From a virus: 39,138 nt of DNA. A program made the position numbers and the translations under genes. The DNA lies in the UHGV virus genome UHGV-0198113. One strand, 5' to 3'. Below the pieces are notes generated by a model. That model did no database searches and was not told the origin of the DNA. It saw only the letters and a list, made by a program, of their open reading frames with translations. Positions 3,001-21,244 of the stretch are shown here, one piece after another. How positions within the stretch are numbered: position 1 is the first letter of the stretch; every line of letters starts with the position of its first letter.

Positions 3001-4472
3001 AAATCGCCAAACACGTGGGTGTGGTTAGACAATGCTTTGTTCTTTAAAACATTTGTCAGTGCTTTTGTTACTGGTTTGTTAGCCGGACTGGTATTGTCCA
3101 TTTTATCGATGCCGAAATCCGTTTTCGTTAACGTCAATACCATGTTCTCACCGGTCTTAACAAATCCTTTACCGTTAATGGTGTAATCATCATCGACGTA
3201 CAAGTCTAACCGGTCTTTTAATTCAGTAACGGCTTTTTGGGATATTGCTGTACCCAACGCAGCTGATGTTGCGATATTCGTAATAGAGAACAATCCGTAA
3301 ACCGACTCAGACGCCGTAGGGATATTTGCATTTAACGTCAATGGGTTGGATTGTTTCGATGTACCGTACGCTTTCACTGTGTCTGAAGACGAGAAGTACG
3401 CATTAGCTTCCAGCAACGTCACCGATGTTAAGTACATGTTCACCATGTCTGGTGTAACCAGATACACGGAGTTATACACTGGCGCTAAAACATCTTGCTC
3501 GGAGCCAGAGTGTACCCAAAGGGTGTTCAACCCAGCGCTGAACTCAACGGCTAAGCCTGATTCATTGTTGTCCTGGTCAGCTTTAATCACTAATGGTTGT
3601 GGTGACGTAATCAACCACTTATCATTTCGGATACTGATTACATGACCGCCTGCGGTTTTGAACGCCAGTTCTTTACCGTTTGAAGCACGCCAACGACCAT
3701 AAACCGTGCCGAGTGTACGGCCCATCAACTGGTCTACGTCCGACTGCTCAATTCCCGCAGAACCCATCAACGTTGCGAGTTCATCTAACGTTCTGTTGAA
3801 AGCTTTTGTCGCATCTACGGCACGCCCCAACACAGGCAGTGCACCAATGTCTTCAGTCGTGTAGTTGTGAACATTAGGGTTCAAATGGTGCTGATAAAGC
3901 TCTTCGTCAAAAACCTTCTTACCGTTTTCGTAAATCAGATTCGTAACTTCGCTAAAAGCAGCATCCAGTTCAGTGGAACGTTTGATAATCTTTTTACGAA
4001 TATCATCTAATGCTTTTACTACTTCGTCCCTGAGTAGGGCTTCTTCTAAGTTAGCAGGCGGGTCAATAGGCTGTATGACAGGAGCATACGCCATTAATTC
4101 GGACCAATCCACGTTACGCGGATCTTTTAAATCGGTACGAACTAGATACTTGCCAATTTCCGATTGTGGGATACGGTACTGGCGCGCTACACCCAGAATT
4201 TCGTATTCCACCTCAGTGGCAGTCAGTAACATGAACCCGCCGTAAATTTGGTCTTGTTCTGCCTCAGCGAGCTCTTTAAAGTAATAACCTAAATAGTAGT
4301 CCAGACCTTCTATTAAGGTACGACGGCCACCGGCGGCGGACTCGTCAGCAACAGTGAGCTTTAATCCGATACGATAAAAGGGGCCTTCCGGCGGGATGAC
4401 CACGTTAAATCGGTTAGGGTACGTTGACGTATTTAACGTACCGTTAAACAGCGCCGCGTCTTCTCTCGGCAT
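1..4472 (-). CDS. large tail-fibre/tailspike-like structural protein, partial (N-terminal ~1490 codons; C-terminus lies beyond window start)
   Basis: ATG at 4472-4470 preceded by AGGAG (MPREDAALFNG...). Frame spot-checked stop-free at the window start; the only minus-strand track ORFs in this span (1424-1654, 2600-2830) are in another frame. Absent from the ORF track because it has no stop in the window. N-terminus shares the PF(F/Y)...L.V...G.DY motif with the next two genes. Confidence 0.6.
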   Translation of the reverse strand, partial: MPREDAALFNGTLNTSTYPNRFNVVIPPEGPFYRIGLKLTVADESAAGGRRTLIEGLDYYLGYYFKELAEAEQDQIYGGFMLLTATEVEYEILGVARQYRIPQSEIGKYLVRTDLKDPRNVDWSELMAYAPVIQPIDPPANLEEALLRDEVVKALDDIRKKIIKRSTELDAAFSEVTNLIYENGKKVFDEELYQHHLNPNVHNYTTEDIGALPVLGRAVDATKAFNRTLDELATLMGSAGIEQSDVDQLMGRTLGTVYGRWRASNGKELAFKTAGGHVISIRNDKWLITSPQPLVIKADQDNNESGLAVEFSAGLNTLWVHSGSEQDVLAPVYNSVYLVTPDMVNMYLTSVTLLEANAYFSSSDTVKAYGTSKQSNPLTLNANIPTASESVYGLFSITNIATSAALGTAISQKAVTELKDRLDLYVDDDYTINGKGFVKTGENMVLTLTKTDFGIDKMDNTSPANKPVTKALTNVLKNKALSNHTHVFGDLDNVPIGSATVDGLLQLWDAIDTTNDKAVTSRQGWLFAKEIKKVTDKLNTILPAWTVGGAKFGNKNFLPIPALGNYSGFTKNQSYQKGVVGYQQGKVYSLRNASNGVPGTEAIYYGYADINSSNAFENPQQTSVKYHPVGLSKYPGVTLKAILIGGQEAIICLGSDNNRYLVLFNGSMDHAKHTVVCRVTMPVYRNGNPSGTVEQTWNPWPEADDVVLVDDYVYLLRSTVNNSAYAVAAWRLRKADLYTSTTLEFERVTLTGEMGQYGDNLCLRIGQKTEESQSGQFFTYFTPEARAKWTNGHNFVHGPECNHACAVRDSVIRVNHMPTVWFAAADGSQINFRQWATSFTIDTLTGKVTLEGAERFPIKADATTLSFADGSTVETSRKWGGGQANNRCFATFAKPNGTGMMLSCWQVNDADQMPNVSIKGTQGKELFDYLRYDNPNNTSGEGTFTWDKGRGSIYTIGLSHPVGIGGSNKVWLSNPRNRYTIEVEVDPNTPYNVPGYSGYGPNNNRREVDPTLYEQLSCMAACMTPEERHGQLNGWYLTKAETFPYRNIYGNFALSSERLTLEEADRQKMIRMIVDGAPSGEANGYANERISAAHQTGNALFALWMLGINTVCEFDLLQVSCMKTLDNGRRILDIYYFMVSPSKENGYLRFNSATFKLVDWFLDKDYGLSYQSLNEEAGNKTRRVGQPIFASADGVNFGIWLPYTLTIRNIGDLNALGYAAKYTYDPGSGWTRVPGKSQLRQMAPAHNPESGCYMGAGSWDKMALIYSKADRVFCSGNAYTAAEFVNDTTFSTGGQAVIISGVETAEGWILYLTEEVKLDFGSSSYTLPTWSVDLSNQFPSNHANQTFYVHGEVVGSTAQYQIGLEQLPDNATRLFVGTVTTDSKRIVDINIDKVKRLGRVRELEEHAAVVDQHDVAAAFDRKTGPLQTLVNQPLKAPAASTVKGSGYVDAQKWNSLSALAYKPGIPIQETYAGYKSVSRVAYENVADQFW

Positions 4473-14472: not shown

Positions 14473-14682
14473 TTAGTCTTTTTTGTAGACGATCGCGTTG
14501 CCGTGCAGTTTGTTGTTACCAGAGATACCGATAACTTTAAATGCGTCACCACCGATTTTCTCGGCTTCAGCAGCCAGTTTACCGGTTACGTGGTCAACGG
14601 TATCACCAAAGGCACTAACGTTACCAATTTTCTTAAACTCTTCTGGGATATGCTCAGCAGAAGAGAACTCTTTAATAGACAT
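14473..14682 (-). CDS. DUF1471 (BhsA/YdgH/McbA-like) small protein, no signal peptide
   Basis: Track ORF; GGAGAG RBS; 'KIGNVSA...AEKIGGDAFKVIGISGNNKLHGNAIVYKK' matches the BhsA-family core as I recall it; in-frame stop 11 codons upstream rules out an N-terminal extension. Confidence 0.65.
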   Translation of the reverse strand: MSIKEFSSAEHIPEEFKKIGNVSAFGDTVDHVTGKLAAEAEKIGGDAFKVIGISGNNKLHGNAIVYKKD

Positions 14683-14891: not shown

Positions 14892-15857
14892 TTACCGTGG
14901 ACCCGAAGTAGGACCGTGTACACCGTCGTGGATGTGTACGCTGAAAGTAATGCCCGCAATAACCGCATCTTTAACCGTAAAGATACCCACACCTTCCCCA
15001 GTACCGCCGTACTTGAAGTTTTTAGCCACTTCAAGATTACCGGTGAATTGTGCTTCATTCCCTTCTTGTTTAAAGTTCGGCGTTTTAAAGGTGGTCGAAC
15101 TCCCCGCTTCCGTTAACCAGGTTTGTGTTTTAAAGGTAACGGATTTCGATGCTTCTGTATTGCGAACTTCGCATTTCTCATTAATCGTTTTTGTTTCCAG
15201 GTTAATAGAACGCTTTGAATAAATGAACGCATCTTCTTTGTTGATGTTCACTTTTGATAGCATCGCATTCTCAAACCCGAGATCATCTTCGACCGAGTTA
15301 ATGTAATACTTGTTCCCTTTATGGTCAACGCATTGCCACGATCCGTTTGCGTTGTCAAACTGGAATAACCACGCCGCTTTCTCGCCATTCACCATACATG
15401 TTCTTAGCGTGATATGTTTGTCAATCGTCGAGACATTCAACACATACGCATTGGACAGGTCATCCGCCATTTGGTTTTCGGGGTCAGCCGACCACGCATA
15501 AACCGCATCTTCTAATCGCTTAACGTTAGCGAAATTCAAATCAATCCAAAAATAAATATCGGTTTTCCCCAAACGTAACAAGATAACGTAGTCTTCTCGT
15601 TTAACGTCAGGGGAATTAATTCGGTTGGAGTTAAACTTCCACCACTTTGCTGTTATCGTGTTACCCGTCTTAATGGTTAGGTTATCTGTTGCACCAGACG
15701 TTTCATGCGTCTTTTCAGTTGCTGAAGAAACAGATTGCACCACAGTAGGGTTAGCAAAGTTGGTTTCAATTGGTATCACTTTTACCCGATCTGTACCACG
15801 GGGTTTGTCTTCCGCGACGATACCAATTGAGAAAAAATCAACACTGGATTTCTCCAT
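14892..15857 (-). CDS. hypothetical protein (321 aa)
   Basis: Track ORF; AAGGAA RBS 7 nt upstream on minus strand. No motif recognised. Confidence 0.7.
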   Translation of the reverse strand: MEKSSVDFFSIGIVAEDKPRGTDRVKVIPIETNFANPTVVQSVSSATEKTHETSGATDNLTIKTGNTITAKWWKFNSNRINSPDVKREDYVILLRLGKTDIYFWIDLNFANVKRLEDAVYAWSADPENQMADDLSNAYVLNVSTIDKHITLRTCMVNGEKAAWLFQFDNANGSWQCVDHKGNKYYINSVEDDLGFENAMLSKVNINKEDAFIYSKRSINLETKTINEKCEVRNTEASKSVTFKTQTWLTEAGSSTTFKTPNFKQEGNEAQFTGNLEVAKNFKYGGTGEGVGIFTVKDAVIAGITFSVHIHDGVHGPTSGPR

Positions 15858-15883: not shown

Positions 15884-15908
15884 TTTCAGATATATTTTAC
15901 TTAGGTGA
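15884..15908 (+). promoter_or_regulatory. conserved 25-nt motif TTTCAGATATATTTTACTTAGGTGA (copy 1), candidate phage promoter or regulatory site
   Basis: Near-identical second copy at 20208-20232 (one mismatch); both intergenic and upstream of plus-strand gene blocks. Confidence 0.4.
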
Positions 15909-16243
15909 ATAGGGACTGAAGTGCGAGTTCAGTCCCTACGGACACGTTTCTTTCGAAACGGAGTTACCACGTTATTAGGAAACAGACCAATGTCTACTGA
16001 GAAGAAAGGCGGATTGGACGAAGTCATCGAACAGTTCAAACGCTACAACCCAGCTATTCCTCGGTAATCATAGTATTACTTAAAATTTACAGATTGTCCC
16101 TTTATTCTGCTACTCGGGATACCGGTAGGGGGTAGGGGGCATTATGTATACGGATATAAATAGCGGAGGTATACGTAGTATACCGACATACTCTTCCCAG
16201 AGGAACGTAGTGACTTCCTTATTCCTTTTTAGGAGAATAATCC

Positions 16244-16996
16244 ATGCTGACAGCAGAAGTTTTTGTTAACCAATACTTAGATGAACTCTTTGCTAAGACC
16301 TATTTAGAGATCGCCTCTCCTATCGTTGAAGATTTAGTAGGTTCAAAATACCCTGCTAAATTAGTCGAAATCAAAACGGTTAAGCCTGAAAACGTTCCTA
16401 CTGACGAACCAGAGGATAAATATCGGATTACCGCTTATGCTAATAGCGTATTCAGTATTCTTAACAGCGAAACTGGTGTGATGCTTATTTACAGTATCAT
16501 TACCGAAAGCGATTTTAATTCAGTACGCTACGCTATCGAAAATCTGGCTAACATTGGACCGCTTAGCCATGACCCGACCATTATAACAGAACAGTGGGCA
16601 TTAATGTCTGTATTTGCCCACTTCCCTTTATTCCGCCACGGAATTGCATTAATTCATCGTGAATTTGAAGTACCTTACAATGCGGAACTAACGTTACTGG
16701 GTCCTGGTTTTAATCTCTACCCGTTAAGGGACGATAACGATAAGTTATACGGCGTCCATATCTACTTTAAATGCTTCGAGGAGCTGTACGTTCTTGAGTT
16801 AATTGCTTCGGATATAGTAAAAGAAATCCCAGAAGTAGAAACGATTTCCAGAAATACTCACGTGATCGAAATCAATCCCAACGATCCGATGTTGAAATAC
16901 CGTGATGAAGTCGATATACTTAGCATCGCTACTGTTAGAGGCTGGGGCGCTGCTGAAATTACCAATAACCGCTTGTTATTGTTAAAACACGCGTAA
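16244..16996 (+). CDS. hypothetical protein (250 aa); paralog-family member 1
   Basis: Track ORF; AGGAGA RBS; C-terminus '...VRGWGAAEITNNRLLLLKHA' is a diverged copy of the GW...G(K)QLLF module. Confidence 0.7.
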   Translation: MLTAEVFVNQYLDELFAKTYLEIASPIVEDLVGSKYPAKLVEIKTVKPENVPTDEPEDKYRITAYANSVFSILNSETGVMLIYSIITESDFNSVRYAIENLANIGPLSHDPTIITEQWALMSVFAHFPLFRHGIALIHREFEVPYNAELTLLGPGFNLYPLRDDNDKLYGVHIYFKCFEELYVLELIASDIVKEIPEVETISRNTHVIEINPNDPMLKYRDEVDILSIATVRGWGAAEITNNRLLLLKHA

Positions 16997-17023
16997 GTAA
17001 AAAAACCGAAAAGGAGAATAATC

Positions 17024-17578
17024 ATGTATCACGCTAAATTGAAAAATGAAATCGTTCAATCTCTTGAAAAGGGTGTTGGTGAACACTACTTTACTTGTCC
17101 TTATACCGTACTGACTAATACCATTATCTCACCGGACGTGATGGTAGTGGGTGTAACCGTACAAGCGGTGGGAGAAACACCGATGTTCCGCAGAATTCCA
17201 CGTAACACGGATATCTCTTTCAGAAGTGGGTTTACGTCTTACCTTCGAAGCTTACTGGGAGATACCGCTTGGAAAACAGGCAGTTTCTTCCACGAAGGGA
17301 AAACATCTGTGTTGGTTTATAAGGAAGGTGTTAAGTATTCGGTTGATTTTCTCTTAGCGCGTCTGTATAGCTTCTTTCCAAGCCCTACTGATTGCACGCC
17401 AGACAATCCGGGTAAGCTGTTAAATCAAGACGAAGCTGAAGCGTTGTTTGAACAACTTCGGAAAGAACATTGTAATGCTGACGACTGGGAAACCCTCATC
17501 GCTGTCGCTAAAGCGCATGGCTGGTATACCGTGCGTAAAGTAGGTAAACAATTGTTGTTCTTAGCTTATAATGTTTAA
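17024..17578 (+). CDS. hypothetical protein (184 aa); paralog-family member 2
   Basis: Track ORF; AAGGAGA RBS; C-terminus 'AHGWYTVRKVGKQLLFLAYNV'; internal related copy 'AWKTGSFFHEGKTSVLVYK'. Confidence 0.75.
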   Translation: MYHAKLKNEIVQSLEKGVGEHYFTCPYTVLTNTIISPDVMVVGVTVQAVGETPMFRRIPRNTDISFRSGFTSYLRSLLGDTAWKTGSFFHEGKTSVLVYKEGVKYSVDFLLARLYSFFPSPTDCTPDNPGKLLNQDEAEALFEQLRKEHCNADDWETLIAVAKAHGWYTVRKVGKQLLFLAYNV

Positions 17579-17589
17579 GGGATGATATC

Positions 17590-18717
17590 ATGCATATCTA
17601 CAATAACTCACCGTCGCATAGACTCTATCTTGAATTACTTTTCGAAGATTACAAGAAAGGTGTACCGAAAATACTACTCAATATCCCGTGTGCTACGCAA
17701 AATGATTTGTTCGGGCGCGTTTTTGGTTGCACCGTTAACGCTTTGCCAGAACCAATCTGTGCACCCGTGGATATTTGTGTTTTCGACGAACGCATTGAGG
17801 ATTTTCAATTCACTCTATACGCAAATGAGTCGTTACCCTACGACAAACTTTACGTCCGTGAGTTAAAATCAAATCAACGTTTAATGTATCGTGTTTACCC
17901 ATCGGAGAAATTCTCATTACTGGAGTATAAAATCAGGCGGCTGCCTTACGAGGGTGTGAAATTACTCGACCAGCAGGATATGACTTTTCTGGAAGAACTC
18001 TGTGGATTTGAAATTGAGAAGATTCACGTAATTCAAGAAATATCCCAAAACGTACCTACACGCCGCACCCCTAACGGTGGGTTTCCGTACGAGTTCATCG
18101 ACACAGGACTAAGGCTCGTAACCGAATTTAACGACGTAATGTATTACGCAGTGTGTATTGAACGTAAAGTAGTGGAGAAAGAAATGACAAGTACATTGAA
18201 AGAAGAATTAGCACAATTCATTCGTGACGTCGAAGAGAAAAGCAAGAGCGATCACATTTTCTCACAACGCTATCCTGAACTTATTGACGAAACCACCGAT
18301 AGTGTCGTCGACGGTATACGCATTTTCCCAAGTGGTCTTGCAATTTACCGACTGCCTAGCGTTAACCAGCTTAAAGTCATGGAAATGCTAAAAGACGTTT
18401 TAGCAGAAGCGGGTTGGGAATATCGTTTCGATTGCAATTTCGAAGGGATGGCGTTATTCCTTACAAAGAAAAATTATACGTTGTCAATCGATCTACCCAA
18501 AAGTCAATATTACAGTTTCTTCCCGAAAGCGGATGATCGCACTGAAAAAGAACCTGCGTTGTTACTTGATGCGGCAGAATCCAATACGCTAATGATGCAA
18601 TTGCGGTCGATTGACAAAAAGTTAAATACCGGTCATTTAACGACGATCGGTAAAGATTACGGTTGGAAATCTGTCGAATCGTACGGCAGTCAGCTGTTGT
18701 TTGTTGCTGACCTTTAA
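17590..18717 (+). CDS. hypothetical protein (375 aa); paralog-family member 3
   Basis: Track ORF; C-terminus 'DYGWKSVESYGSQLLFVADL'; internal copy 'AGWEYRFDCNFEGMALFLTK'. Confidence 0.75.
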   Translation: MHIYNNSPSHRLYLELLFEDYKKGVPKILLNIPCATQNDLFGRVFGCTVNALPEPICAPVDICVFDERIEDFQFTLYANESLPYDKLYVRELKSNQRLMYRVYPSEKFSLLEYKIRRLPYEGVKLLDQQDMTFLEELCGFEIEKIHVIQEISQNVPTRRTPNGGFPYEFIDTGLRLVTEFNDVMYYAVCIERKVVEKEMTSTLKEELAQFIRDVEEKSKSDHIFSQRYPELIDETTDSVVDGIRIFPSGLAIYRLPSVNQLKVMEMLKDVLAEAGWEYRFDCNFEGMALFLTKKNYTLSIDLPKSQYYSFFPKADDRTEKEPALLLDAAESNTLMMQLRSIDKKLNTGHLTTIGKDYGWKSVESYGSQLLFVADL

Positions 18718-18784
18718 TAAACGAAAATACACTTTCTCTAACTGCCGCGCTTTAGTCGCGGCTTTTGTTAAGAAGGAAATAGAA

Positions 18785-19558
18785 ATGAAAATCCATTTAG
18801 ATGCACTTTTTGAATCAGAACACTACGTGATTAATGGCTCGCTGGCCTCGTTGTTGCTGGACGATAAATATAATCGAACACTCCAATTGCGGTCCGTCGA
18901 ATCCGCACCAACAGAAGACGTAGGTCTTTACCAACGTGTCAATCATACCCGTGGGGAATATCGCCGATATAAACCCGACTCACTCAGCGTTAAGCTCTGG
19001 CAACTAAGTACAGGCAAAGTATTAAGTTACCACACGGTTGGCCTGTATTACGTTGAACGTGCACATCTGTGGTTAGAAGAAGTTAAAGAGATGGATTATG
19101 ATCTCTTAAGCAAAAGACTGCGCGATAACAATAACAGCTTACCGATACGTAATTATTTCTCCACAGTCGAAAATAGTCGTTGTTTCGTTTCCCGTAAATC
19201 CATGATATTGCCTGGGGTCGAAGTTCAGACGACATTAAAAGACGCGGTCGTGAAGAAAATCTTTCATGAGTCTAAACATGTCGGTTTTCGTATTTATCTA
19301 ACGCACAAAAGGCCATTTACCGTGATTAGTGTTGTTAACGTACCTGAAGGATCATCAATCATTCAAGAACTCCCTGACGCCCGTGACCGTTGCCCTAATG
19401 AGCCGCTCTACTTAATGTCAGGAACAAAATCAGCCTCGTTGATCTCTCGTTACAGCATGATAGATGTTGTTGACGCTGCTATGAAGCTAGGTTGGAAAGA
19501 AGTGCAGCAACATGGTAAACAGTTGCTGTTTATTGCAGATGTAAAACTTAATCAATAG
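18785..19558 (+). CDS. hypothetical protein (~257 aa); paralog-family member 4
   Basis: Track ORF 18701-19558 trimmed to the first ATG with an AAGGA RBS (track start is a TTG inside the previous gene); C-terminus 'KLGWKEVQQHGKQLLFIADVKLNQ'; internal copy 'LWQLSTGKVLSYH'. Confidence 0.7.
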   Translation: MKIHLDALFESEHYVINGSLASLLLDDKYNRTLQLRSVESAPTEDVGLYQRVNHTRGEYRRYKPDSLSVKLWQLSTGKVLSYHTVGLYYVERAHLWLEEVKEMDYDLLSKRLRDNNNSLPIRNYFSTVENSRCFVSRKSMILPGVEVQTTLKDAVVKKIFHESKHVGFRIYLTHKRPFTVISVVNVPEGSSIIQELPDARDRCPNEPLYLMSGTKSASLISRYSMIDVVDAAMKLGWKEVQQHGKQLLFIADVKLNQ

Positions 19559-19570
19559 TGAGGTGGTACC

Positions 19571-20152
19571 GTGTACCGATTAATAGAAATGCGAAAAGAC
19601 GTATGGTTGGAAAACCTCGTCAATGGGGAGCTAGAAGGAATTGAGCTTTCCTTACCCGAAAAGGCGGACACGGTACTGGCCTTTCTGGTAAAACAGAAAA
19701 GTAGTCTGGACCCGATAGGTATCTTTGCTGTAGAACACACCGATCCTCGTGGCCCTACGCTACGTTGTATCTGCTGCGCTATGGATAAGATTCCTGCATC
19801 GCCGTTTGTGCAATACGCACGACGTAAAGCACCAGCGGGTGGACTTTTGTGGGTATCGTTACTGCCTGACGTAAGGATCATTCGGGACGACTACTCGGCG
19901 TTTGTACAAGCCAGTAAAATCAACCTGTATAATCCGAGTGCTGAACGTACGGATATGCCCTTCAGTATTACGTTAGACGACGACGGAACGCAGGAGGGTA
20001 TCGAGTCCATTACGGAATTGGTTAACTCCTATCCAGTTGCCACTATCGAGTTAGAAAACCCGAAGCGTTTACCGCTCGGAGACTTACTCGAGTGGATAGA
20101 ACTGAACACCGAGTTTCTGGTAGGTTCTCGTTTGTATCGGTTCGATGTTTGA
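19571..20152 (+). CDS. hypothetical protein (193 aa), GTG start; possible diverged paralog
   Basis: Track ORF; GAGGTGG RBS 7 nt before GTG; C-terminus 'LEWIELNTEFLVGSRLYRFDV' loosely resembles the module. Confidence 0.6.
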   Translation: MYRLIEMRKDVWLENLVNGELEGIELSLPEKADTVLAFLVKQKSSLDPIGIFAVEHTDPRGPTLRCICCAMDKIPASPFVQYARRKAPAGGLLWVSLLPDVRIIRDDYSAFVQASKINLYNPSAERTDMPFSITLDDDGTQEGIESITELVNSYPVATIELENPKRLPLGDLLEWIELNTEFLVGSRLYRFDV

Positions 20153-20157
20153 ACGCA

Positions 20158-20188
20158 GTGGGAGCATTGCTCCCACTTTCTTTTTTGT
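20158..20188 (+). terminator. rho-independent terminator closing the paralog operon
   Basis: 8-bp stem GTGGGAGC/GCTCCCAC with 3-nt loop, followed by TTTCTTTTTT. Confidence 0.7.
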
Positions 20189-20207: not shown

Positions 20208-20232
20208 TTTCAGATATATATTACTTAGGTGA
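20208..20232 (+). promoter_or_regulatory. conserved 25-nt motif TTTCAGATATATATTACTTAGGTGA (copy 2)
   Basis: Identical to copy 1 except for one A/T; lies between a terminator and the secreted-protein cassette, about 48 nt upstream of the ATG at 20281. Confidence 0.4.
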
Positions 20233-20280: not shown

Positions 20281-20736
20281 ATGAAAACTTTTATCGCATT
20301 CTTAGTAACCCTTTTAACTTTCGGTCTCAATAACGCTTACGCCGCAATCGGAAGCTGGGAAGGACTTCAAAGTCCGGGAAATGCTGTTTACGAAATCGAA
20401 GACGAAAATGGGAACAGCTTGTCTATCAACTGCGATACCGCAACGGCTAATCGTAAGTTTTACGGTCGCATGGTTTGGTATTACGGTGAACCGGTCGGTT
20501 CAACTAATGCCGAAGACAACGAAATGAGTATTGTCGTAAACGGCAAAAACTATATCATTCCCACTATTGACGGCAGCGACAAAGCAGAAAAAGCTTGGGT
20601 TGCCTTCGCTAATGCTATCGCTAATGCAAAAAGCTTCGGTGTGGCTATCAACGGTAACGAAGCCGCTAACTTTATTGTAGATGGTGAGCGTCTGCCCGAA
20701 ACTTTCTTTAAGAACTGTGGACATAGCCGTCCTTGA
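20281..20736 (+). CDS. small exported protein with signal peptide (151 aa)
   Basis: Track ORF; AAGGAG RBS; N-terminal hydrophobic signal 'MKTFIAFLVTLLTFGLNNAYAA'; two Cys; paralog of the next gene. Confidence 0.8.
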   Translation: MKTFIAFLVTLLTFGLNNAYAAIGSWEGLQSPGNAVYEIEDENGNSLSINCDTATANRKFYGRMVWYYGEPVGSTNAEDNEMSIVVNGKNYIIPTIDGSDKAEKAWVAFANAIANAKSFGVAINGNEAANFIVDGERLPETFFKNCGHSRP

Positions 20737-20773: not shown

Positions 20774-21244
20774 ATGAAACTGTCTAACATCTTCTTAGCT
20801 ATCGTTTTAACTGTAAGCGCCACTGCTGCACAGGCCATTCCGAACATGTGGGGTAGTGGCTTTGCAATGGGTGAAACCGAGTATGGTATCGATAACGGTG
20901 GATGGGGTATTACCATTAGCTGTACCGGTAATCCAGATGAAAACAACATTTTACCACACAAGATCTTTATCTCTAAAGATGGTAATGTGGTGGCCAACTC
21001 GGAAGATAACGACATTAGTTTCGTTATCGATGGTGAAGAGTTCTGGGGTGTAGTTCCTGACGGCACACGTAATACCGACAATACTTGGGTTAGTTTTGTA
21101 AAAGCAATCTCTACAGCAACTGAGTTTGACTTATACCTCGACCAGAAAAAGGTTGCTACCTTTAACCCATCAGCCAAAAACGTTAAGAAAGTGATGGACG
21201 GTAACTTCCTCGAATCTTGCTGGAACACCGAATACGAACAATAA
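20774..21244 (+). CDS. small exported protein with signal peptide (156 aa), paralog of 20281-20736
   Basis: Track ORF; signal 'MKLSNIFLAIVLTVSATAAQA'; shared segments (I-x-C, SEDN/AEDN, VVNG/VIDG, WV[AS]F, C near the C-terminus). Confidence 0.8.
   Translation: MKLSNIFLAIVLTVSATAAQAIPNMWGSGFAMGETEYGIDNGGWGITISCTGNPDENNILPHKIFISKDGNVVANSEDNDISFVIDGEEFWGVVPDGTRNTDNTWVSFVKAISTATEFDLYLDQKKVATFNPSAKNVKKVMDGNFLESCWNTEYEQ

Follow-up and report, generated by a model that had tools for sequence, protein, structure and literature searches.

A C-terminal domain family expanded in tandem behind an early-promoter motif in a jumbo phage of the SPN3US/phiKZ lineage

Most genes of nucleus-forming and related jumbo phages are without known function, and the proteins of the first minutes of infection are little understood. 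Here we describe five consecutive genes, g1 to g5, of the UHGV virus genome UHGV-0198113, from which a stretch of 39,138 nucleotides (the window) was analysed; it is part of a jumbo phage genome of about 225 kb belonging to the SPN3US/phiKZ lineage. The closest described relatives of g1-g4 are proteins with the same C-terminal domain, among them SPN3US gp175 (SPN3US_0175, 412 aa), from the Salmonella phage of that name, gp176 of Erwinia phage Phobos, CR5_165 of Cronobacter phage CR5, and phiEaH2 gp097. All family members fall within four PHROGs without assigned function, namely 26772, 33648, 24489 and 18480. In these phages the gene is found at the equivalent genomic site, transcribed divergently from the baseplate assembly gene, and several of them share the promoter motif ahead of it. 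The relatives have one copy each, with unrelated N-termini, and are uncharacterised, whereas the clade of the window has four copies in tandem.

A second group of relatives comprises the stand-alone proteins of Klebsiella phage vB_KpM_Centimanus (CENTIMANUS_00108), Erwinia phage PhiEaH1 and Shewanella phage SXP01, which consist of the core of the domain only. Like g2-g4, they carry PDxxDR(T/S)xNDP and GW...GKQLLF motifs, but they have no N-terminal extension, lie at other loci amid accessory genes and contain longer inter-helix inserts. Databases already contain the proteins of the family, entered as hypothetical proteins and as PHROGs without annotation, and jumbo phages often have families of paralogs. 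In the literature searched, no description was found of the domain definition, the stand-alone forms, the early locus, the expansion in one clade or the cassette replacement.

Regarding the anatomy of the locus, we consider it highly probable that g1-g4 represent a tandem expansion of one domain family and that they lie in one unit behind a phiKZ-type early-promoter motif. A single domain definition is thereby given to a family that current resources split into four unannotated PHROGs, and this family is tied to a conserved locus, proximal to a putative early promoter, that is a recombination hot spot and that in one clade holds four copies.

The C-terminal domain shared by g1-g4

The original prediction, made from the sequence alone, had proposed that four of the five genes end in related sequences built around a module of about 25 residues. 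For g2, g3 and g4 the relationship stands far above chance: the last 25 residues give Smith-Waterman z scores of 9.3-14.7, with 0 of 1000 shuffles reaching the observed score (the comparison set beforehand as the refuting test), and the last 70 residues give z = 9.0-20.5. Profiles built from alignments of orthologues and compared with hhalign yield E = 3e-12 for g2 with g3, 8e-10 for g3 with g4 and 4e-5 for g2 with g4. Nearly all of this signal is located in the core, the last ~70 residues, which alone reaches E = 1.7e-13. The ~100 residues that precede the core align co-linearly, yet with the core removed they attain no better than E = 0.03-0.7, and the homology of g2, g3 and g4 over ~170 aa indicated by whole-protein alignments was rejected on these grounds. 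A hidden Markov model (HMM) of the core matches all three proteins (g2, E = 3e-20; g3, E = 7e-18; g4, E = 3e-20), which also match the PHROGs of the family. At the DNA level the paralogous modules are ~50% identical and their longest common word is 7-9 nt; the duplications are therefore old and conservation is at the protein level only, as had been claimed. The view that the N-terminal parts are unrelated among members, and that no enzymatic motif is recognisable in the family, is likewise upheld.

The case of g1 is different in kind. Its pairwise similarity to the other members is weak (z = 2.2-4.9) and plain HMMER finds no module in it. On the other hand, its last 71 aa align end-to-end with the 71-sequence profile of the family core, with a probability of 79.7% and E = 1.5e-5; the profile score of 27.2 compares with 9.4 +/- 1.9 for 200 column shuffles (maximum 18.3; z = 9.3), and with 7.5-13 for other segments of g1 and for the C-terminus of g5. 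Because this score stands above both the shuffles and the other segments, g1 is accepted as a degenerate member, which keeps IP...N...GW...LLLL and has lost the D, the R, the second P and the G-x-Q of the domain. The four related C-termini therefore hold by direct comparison for g2-g4 and through the family profile only for g1.

Two further elements of the prediction did not survive. The fifth gene, considered a looser match, shows no similarity to g1-g4 (z <= 0.2; hhalign probability 0.1%); g5 belongs to phrog_20879 (E = 1.3e-29) and is homologous to SPN3US gp176 and gp177. A role for g5 as the conserved partner of the module was also rejected, since Phobos, CR5 and the stand-alone loci lack it. 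The g5-type protein is single in the window clade, tandem-duplicated in SPN3US, phiEaH2 and pEa_SNUABM_29 (second copy, E ~1e-11 to 1e-13), and was not detected in Phobos or CR5. As to the degenerate internal copies of the module that had been proposed for three of the proteins, sliding-window scores in g2 and g4 remain at background, and the segment of g3 around AGWEYRFDCNFEGMALF is borderline (score ~18.5, E ~0.002, probability 14-18%). The internal 'GW' segments are thus unsupported as second copies in g2 and g4, and borderline in g3.

Alignment with relatives extends the conserved unit to ~65-70 aa, instead of 25, and brings in a PDxxDR(S/T)xNEP motif that the earlier description had missed. 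Its consensus reads lPDxxDR(S/T)xNEPxYLMSxxxVxxL, followed by a variable insert and by IxxxAxxxGWxxVxxxGxQLLFIA. The columns invariant in g2-g4 and the relatives (P, P, L, G, W, V, G, Q, L, F) form two patterns: P...P-x2-L spans the N-terminal loop and strand 1, and helix 2 together with the hairpin carries G-W-x2-V-x3-G-x-Q-x-L-F. In the AlphaFold2 models, an extended PDxxDR(S/T)xNEP loop leads to strand 1 (YLMS), helix 1, the insert, helix 2 ending in GW, and a beta-hairpin (xxVxxxGxQLLFIA); the domain is thus predicted to be compact, with a beta-alpha-alpha-beta-beta arrangement. The mean predicted local distance difference test value (pLDDT) is 76 for the model of g2, with 81-96 in the core, and 85.6 for the core of g4 modelled alone.

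An exhaustive HMM search of 1.84 billion cluster representatives returned only 69 at E <= 1e-3, among which many are proteins of 72-130 aa that represent the core domain alone. The existence of these small proteins indicates that the domain is autonomous, and their occurrence in other phages argues for an intrinsic activity beyond that of a simple tag. The stand-alone members that could be placed lie on large phage contigs, among them Klebsiella phage Centimanus (300 kb), a 223-kb contig with an SMC-like gene and a 112-kb contig, and additionally on one 22-kb contig, where the genes sit amid accessory and nucleotide-metabolism genes. When two stand-alone and two ~230-aa members were used as tblastn queries, matches were found only in jumbo phages of Erwinia, Salmonella, Shewanella, Proteus and Escherichia.

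Comparison with annotated resources assigned no function to the family. For g1-g5 there is no Pfam match at E <= 1 and no NCBIfam match, and PADLOC reports nothing beyond a chance-level CARF match for g1 (E = 0.045). The 65 family members examined contain no credible Pfam domain, the sole match being TBPIP at E = 0.0087. Sequence and profile searches of the PDB with five different profiles gave nothing meaningful, and tblastn of g3 against the phage collection gave no match. Structure matches in BFVD at E <= 1e-3 are restricted to uncharacterised jumbo-phage proteins. Taken together, the Pfam, PHROGs, PADLOC and NCBIfam searches with g1-g5 yielded unannotated PHROGs only.

The locus in related phages and the exchange of N-terminal parts

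The genes of the window are syntenic with gp170-gp181 of SPN3US. Their order comprises two giant virion proteins, a 420-aa homolog of gp171 (which in SPN3US is an essential tail-associated protein), a BhsA/YdgH-like protein, the baseplate assembly protein, g1-g5 and an SbcC/SMC-like protein. No catalogued phage is close to the window at the DNA level; contigs of ~220-226 kb, drawn from metagenomes and from assemblies of E. coli, Shigella and Salmonella, encode proteins identical or nearly identical to g2. All five genes recur, with their order preserved, on three related contigs (L003, L004 and L005).

SPN3US, Phobos, CR5, phiEaH2 and pEa_SNUABM_29 each have one module gene at this site, in divergent orientation to the baseplate gene; Machina-type Erwinia phages show a module match at the same genome position, about 160 kb, and tblastn with g4 matched the C-termini of syntenic genes in 49 jumbo-phage records. 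From genus to genus these genes have unrelated N-termini, and relatives and cluster representatives are between 204 and 534 aa long. When the complete SPN3US genome was scanned in six frames with the HMM, exactly one copy was detected, gp175, which like g4 stands directly 5' of a g5-type gene. The counterpart of the single gene kept by related genera is g4. Given that g4 is the nearest to the single-copy genes and that SPN3US has a single copy, g1-g3 are additions specific to the window clade, representing older and strongly diverged extra copies.

The surroundings of the locus raise the question of whether these proteins might be accessory or assembly factors of the tail or baseplate, anchored to the particle by the C-terminal domain and adapted to hosts through their N-termini. 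In favour of this, the genes have the baseplate assembly gene and the essential tail-associated protein (SPN3US gp171) next to them in every relative, and the pairing of a conserved with a variable domain is typical of receptor-binding proteins. However, the genes are divergent from the structural genes and lie behind an early-type promoter, stand-alone homologues are found amid nucleotide-metabolism and accessory genes, and there are no fibre-like repeats or folds. In addition, the mass-spectrometry table of the SPN3US virion (PMC5105663 supplement) lists gp167-171 and gp173, followed by gp193, and gp175 is absent from it, evidence that pertains to the SPN3US homolog and not to the phage of the window. 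A tail or baseplate role is accordingly disfavoured and, in our judgement, very improbable.

Within the window clade, the locus has undergone replacement of defined segments. Between the window and L004, flanking proteins are 95-100% identical, as are g1 (96%), g4 (95%) and g5 (97%), whereas g2 is only 42% identical and the N-terminal 200 aa of g3 only 31%. At the nucleotide level, a similarity of ~95-97% stops at ~17027 and resumes at ~18196. The replaced cassette (17028-18195 in the window, 5417-6630 in L004) therefore takes in g2 entirely and g3 as far as codon ~200, which agrees with the original description of the family as diversifying. The sole DNA similarity left inside the cassette is a stretch of 132 nt, 79% identical, that encodes the g2 core; since the residual similarity sits there, the conserved module may serve as a recombination anchor. 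The g3 homologues span 96% to 43% identity, and between relatives the N-terminal part of g3 is 31-34% identical and the C-terminal part 53-94%. Window g2 most resembles its L005 counterpart, the C-terminal half of window g3 its L003 counterpart, and the alleles of g1 fall into two types that are ~45% identical. As judged from these comparisons, N-terminal domains are exchanged while the core persists, and the replacement of a cassette between near-identical phages marks the locus as a recombination hot spot.

Such hypervariable N-termini, swapped between near-identical phages in genes that come first behind the early-promoter motif, would fit an early anti-defence island in which each N-terminal domain inhibits a different bacterial immune system. 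This proposal can also draw on the absence of the SPN3US homolog from the virion proteins and on moron-type accessory neighbours (secreted YfjT-like and BhsA-like proteins). Nevertheless, the proteins resemble no known anti-defence protein or defence component, and nothing here separates the proposal from other roles in host interaction, of which it would be a special case under the explanation that we prefer, namely early modular effectors. Nucleus-forming relatives (Chimalliviridae) are moreover already shielded from DNA-targeting defences, which further counts against a dedicated anti-defence island, and we regard it as unlikely.

Promoter, leader and terminator signals

The 25-nt motif TTTCAGATAT(A/T)TTTACTTAGGTGA has exactly two copies in the window, against a chance expectation of 0 (Table 1). 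The first copy reads TATTTTAC, one mismatch from the phiKZ sequence TATATTAC. Predicted phiKZ-related promoters have been compiled for phiKZ itself (TATATTAC), 201phi2-1 (TTTRARR_BTATATTACDWHDGTG) and N1M2 (TTTCARRYAKATATTATYWAAGTGWA) (PMC7058600, Table 2), and the window motif matches these consensus sequences; a review describes motifs of this kind as the early promoters on which the virion RNA polymerase acts (PMC7598289). The motif is also found on the plus strand 5' of the module gene in Phobos, CR5 and pEa29 and 5' of g1 in L003-L005, and SPN3US-like phages conserve, between genes, a 75-nt segment around the second copy. SPN3US itself contains seven copies of the motif at <=5 mismatches, always on the plus strand and ~75 nt upstream of genes that are not annotated as structural. 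One of these seven motif-headed genes is annotated as a helix-turn-helix (HTH) DNA-binding protein, and the SPN3US motif is often followed by a short inverted repeat (GAGTTAAGAGATTAACTC).

Downstream of the motif, the hairpin that adjoins it changes in a compensatory manner between phages (GGGAC/GTCCC versus GGGGC/GCCCC). The possible leader open reading frame (ORF) is present in all four related loci, with many substitutions but a retained start codon in L005. It precedes a leader element of ~135 nt in which only 1-2 positions vary among four phages, compared with 87-92% identity in its flanks and ~45% between the g1 proteins. Homologues of this element with compensatory stem changes are found in SPN3US, pEa29 and EaH2: the 7-bp stem of its hairpin appears across genera as GGTATAC/GTATACC, GGTATCC/GGATACC, GGTACCC/GGGTACC and GGTGAC/GTCACC, between the conserved flanks AGCGGAGG and GACATCC(TTATTC). 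Neither Rfam nor a blastn comparison with catalogued phages gave a match for the element, which may act as a regulatory RNA or as an operator, either for this locus or for the divergent baseplate gene. A separate observation concerns the 112-kb Logan contig with a stand-alone module gene (L011), from an unrelated large phage, in which (A/G)GGGGTAGGGGT is found at no fewer than four intergenic sites (356, 9915, 13029, 14634) and resembles GGGGGTAGGGGG of the window leader.

The leader bears directly on whether the C-terminal domain might bind nucleic acid, as a winged-helix-like or R3H-like fold that recognises the element, as DNA operator or as RNA of the 5' untranslated region, and autoregulates a strong early operon, much like Aca proteins or the HTH domain of AcrIIA1 with its fused variable cargo. 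The predicted topology would suit such a role, and the leader with its covarying hairpin is specific to the locus, is conserved alongside the gene in several genera and is unique both in the window and in the whole SPN3US genome; the domain also occurs both alone and fused, like the N-terminal domain of AcrIIA1. Against it, the core is near neutral (median pI 6.07, net charge -1) while DNA binders are usually basic, and the link between the helices varies by roughly 10-40 residues, unlike a canonical HTH. Models of HTH families in Pfam match neither g1-g5 nor the other family members, PDB profile searches are empty in this respect, and the leader element is absent from the stand-alone loci. 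In particular, an HTH of the Xis/MerR type finds no family match, and both the variable inter-helix insert and the neutral charge speak against it. On balance, nucleic-acid binding with autoregulation appears doubtful, and the preferred account of the proteins as effectors leaves room for the leader as one candidate partner of the domain.

As to the limits of the unit, the hairpin that follows g5 has a stem of 9 pairs, including 6 G-C, after which comes TTCTTTTTTG; a weaker, putative terminator lies in the g3/g4 gap. The original claim of five consecutive plus-strand genes bounded by a terminator is confirmed in its coordinates, with the promoter-like motif and the terminal hairpin with its T-run now delimiting them. 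Because the early-promoter motif heads g1 and a terminator follows g5, the five genes very probably constitute one early transcription unit, and their early expression is plausible on the strength of these sequence signals. The start of g4 is placed at the ATG at 18785, which has a good ribosome-binding site and is used in the orthologues, and not at the TTG at 18701.

Several neighbouring genes deserve mention. The minus-strand gene at 14473-14682 encodes a 69-aa YdgH/BhsA-like protein (DUF1471). The next early unit opens with two paralogous small signal-peptide proteins (20281-20736 and 20774-21244), both of phrog_3429, whose orthologues match Pfam YfjT; the window and L004 have two YfjT-like copies and L003 has one. 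Both the YfjT-like and the YdgH/BhsA-like proteins represent periplasmic or stress-protein families of enterobacterial type carried by the phage.

Table 1. Coordinates of genes and signals at the g1-g5 locus and of corresponding features in related phages
Feature	Position	Strand	Remarks
Baseplate assembly gene	14892-15857	-	adjoins the g1-g5 unit, divergent
Early-promoter-like motif TTTCAGATATATTTTACTTAGGTGA	15884-15908	+	heads the g1-g5 unit
Hairpin GGGACTGAAGTGCGAGTTCAGTCCC	15910-15938	+	directly 3' of the promoter motif; read from sequence
Possible 25-codon leader ORF MSTEKKGGLDEVIEQFKRYNPAIPR	15991-16068	+	between promoter hairpin and near-invariant element
Near-invariant leader element	16088-16225	+	contains GGGGGTAGGGGG and hairpin GGTATACGTAGTATACC
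g1	16244-16996	+	250 aa; divergent member, module degenerate (IPEVETISRNTH...VRGWGAAEITNNRLLLLK)
g2	17024-17578	+	184 aa, shortest member; core ~aa 117-182
g3	17590-18717	+	375 aa; core ~aa 308-375; N-terminal 200 aa hypervariable
Putative terminator-like hairpin GCCGCGCTTTAGTCGCGGC, then TTTTGTT	18744-18762	+	g3/g4 gap; from pattern scan and sequence reading; weaker than the unit-end hairpin
g4	18785-19558	+	257 aa; member nearest to the single-copy gene of other genera (SPN3US gp175)
g5	19571-20152	+	193 aa; last gene of the unit, outside the family
Intrinsic-terminator-like hairpin and T-run	20157-20186	+	ends the g1-g5 unit; also delimited as 20157-20177
Second early-promoter motif copy	20208-20232	+	exact match; starts the next unit
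SPN3US motif copies (L013-L017)	4423, 56290, 65409, 94235, 113982, 165683, 223273	+	
Leader-element homologues	L016 11470-11560 (SPN3US 161470-161560); L009 ~3468-3545; L008 ~4000-4085		
g5-type tandem pairs	L016 13330-14484 (SPN3US gp176, gp177); L008 5219-6369; L009 5346-6488		

Possible roles and comparison with known systems

The explanation towards which we lean, tentatively, is that g1-g4 are early modular effectors, with a single constant partner contacted through the C-terminal domain and differing activities residing in the N-termini. According to this model, the injected virion RNA polymerase would supply the transcripts from which the proteins are made directly upon infection, and the proteins would stay outside the virion. 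The constant partner would be a macromolecule of phage or host, or else the leader element conserved at their own locus, while the unrelated N-terminal domains, swapped by recombination, would confer different specificities or activities at the phage-host interface, possibly in host takeover or counter-defence.

Several observations weigh against this model. With the searches of Pfam, NCBIfam, PADLOC and PDB sequences empty, there is no function based on homology; likewise, the docking or targeting module with a host-takeover or anti-defence role that the original prediction had envisaged finds no PADLOC, Pfam or structural match in its support. The stand-alone forms show that the domain can act alone, and to call it an 'adaptor' is a guess. 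The early timing of the members is deduced from sequence, and SPN3US gp175 is preceded by a degenerate copy of the motif only. Finally, the five-gene array is stable across the clade, its copy number not being in flux.

A further possibility considered is that the ~65-aa domain has a fold not defined before, serving recognition of nucleic acid or protein, which, together with the leader element, would make up a self-contained early regulatory and effector cassette. Here the conserved domain would tether or autoregulate, and the N-terminal domains would be a swappable arsenal against host factors, deployed while the phage is vulnerable, before its nucleus forms. We hold this combination to be quite improbable. 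Returning to the effector model, g1-g4 constitute a short candidate list for host-takeover or counter-defence functions, and the leader element may regulate the locus. If the C-terminal domain does bind one common partner, it would offer a handle for finding more early effectors in large phages.

With regard to known systems, class I methyltransferases dependent on S-adenosylmethionine (SAM) are matched only over their C-terminal alpha-helix and beta6-beta7 hairpin. The scores are too low for homology, and the domain has neither the Rossmann-like seven-stranded core nor the glycine-rich SAM-binding motif of these enzymes. A parallel in organisation is offered by the anti-CRISPR loci marked by Aca proteins and by AcrIIA1, where a conserved small regulatory domain is found next to, or fused to, variable cargo. 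Unlike in those systems, the conserved part is C-terminal in g1-g4 and shows no sequence similarity, nor any confident structural similarity, to HTH regulators. By analogy, however, the two arrangements appear alike in combining a small conserved domain with variable partners, in their early character and proximity to a promoter, and in the occurrence of both stand-alone and fused forms.

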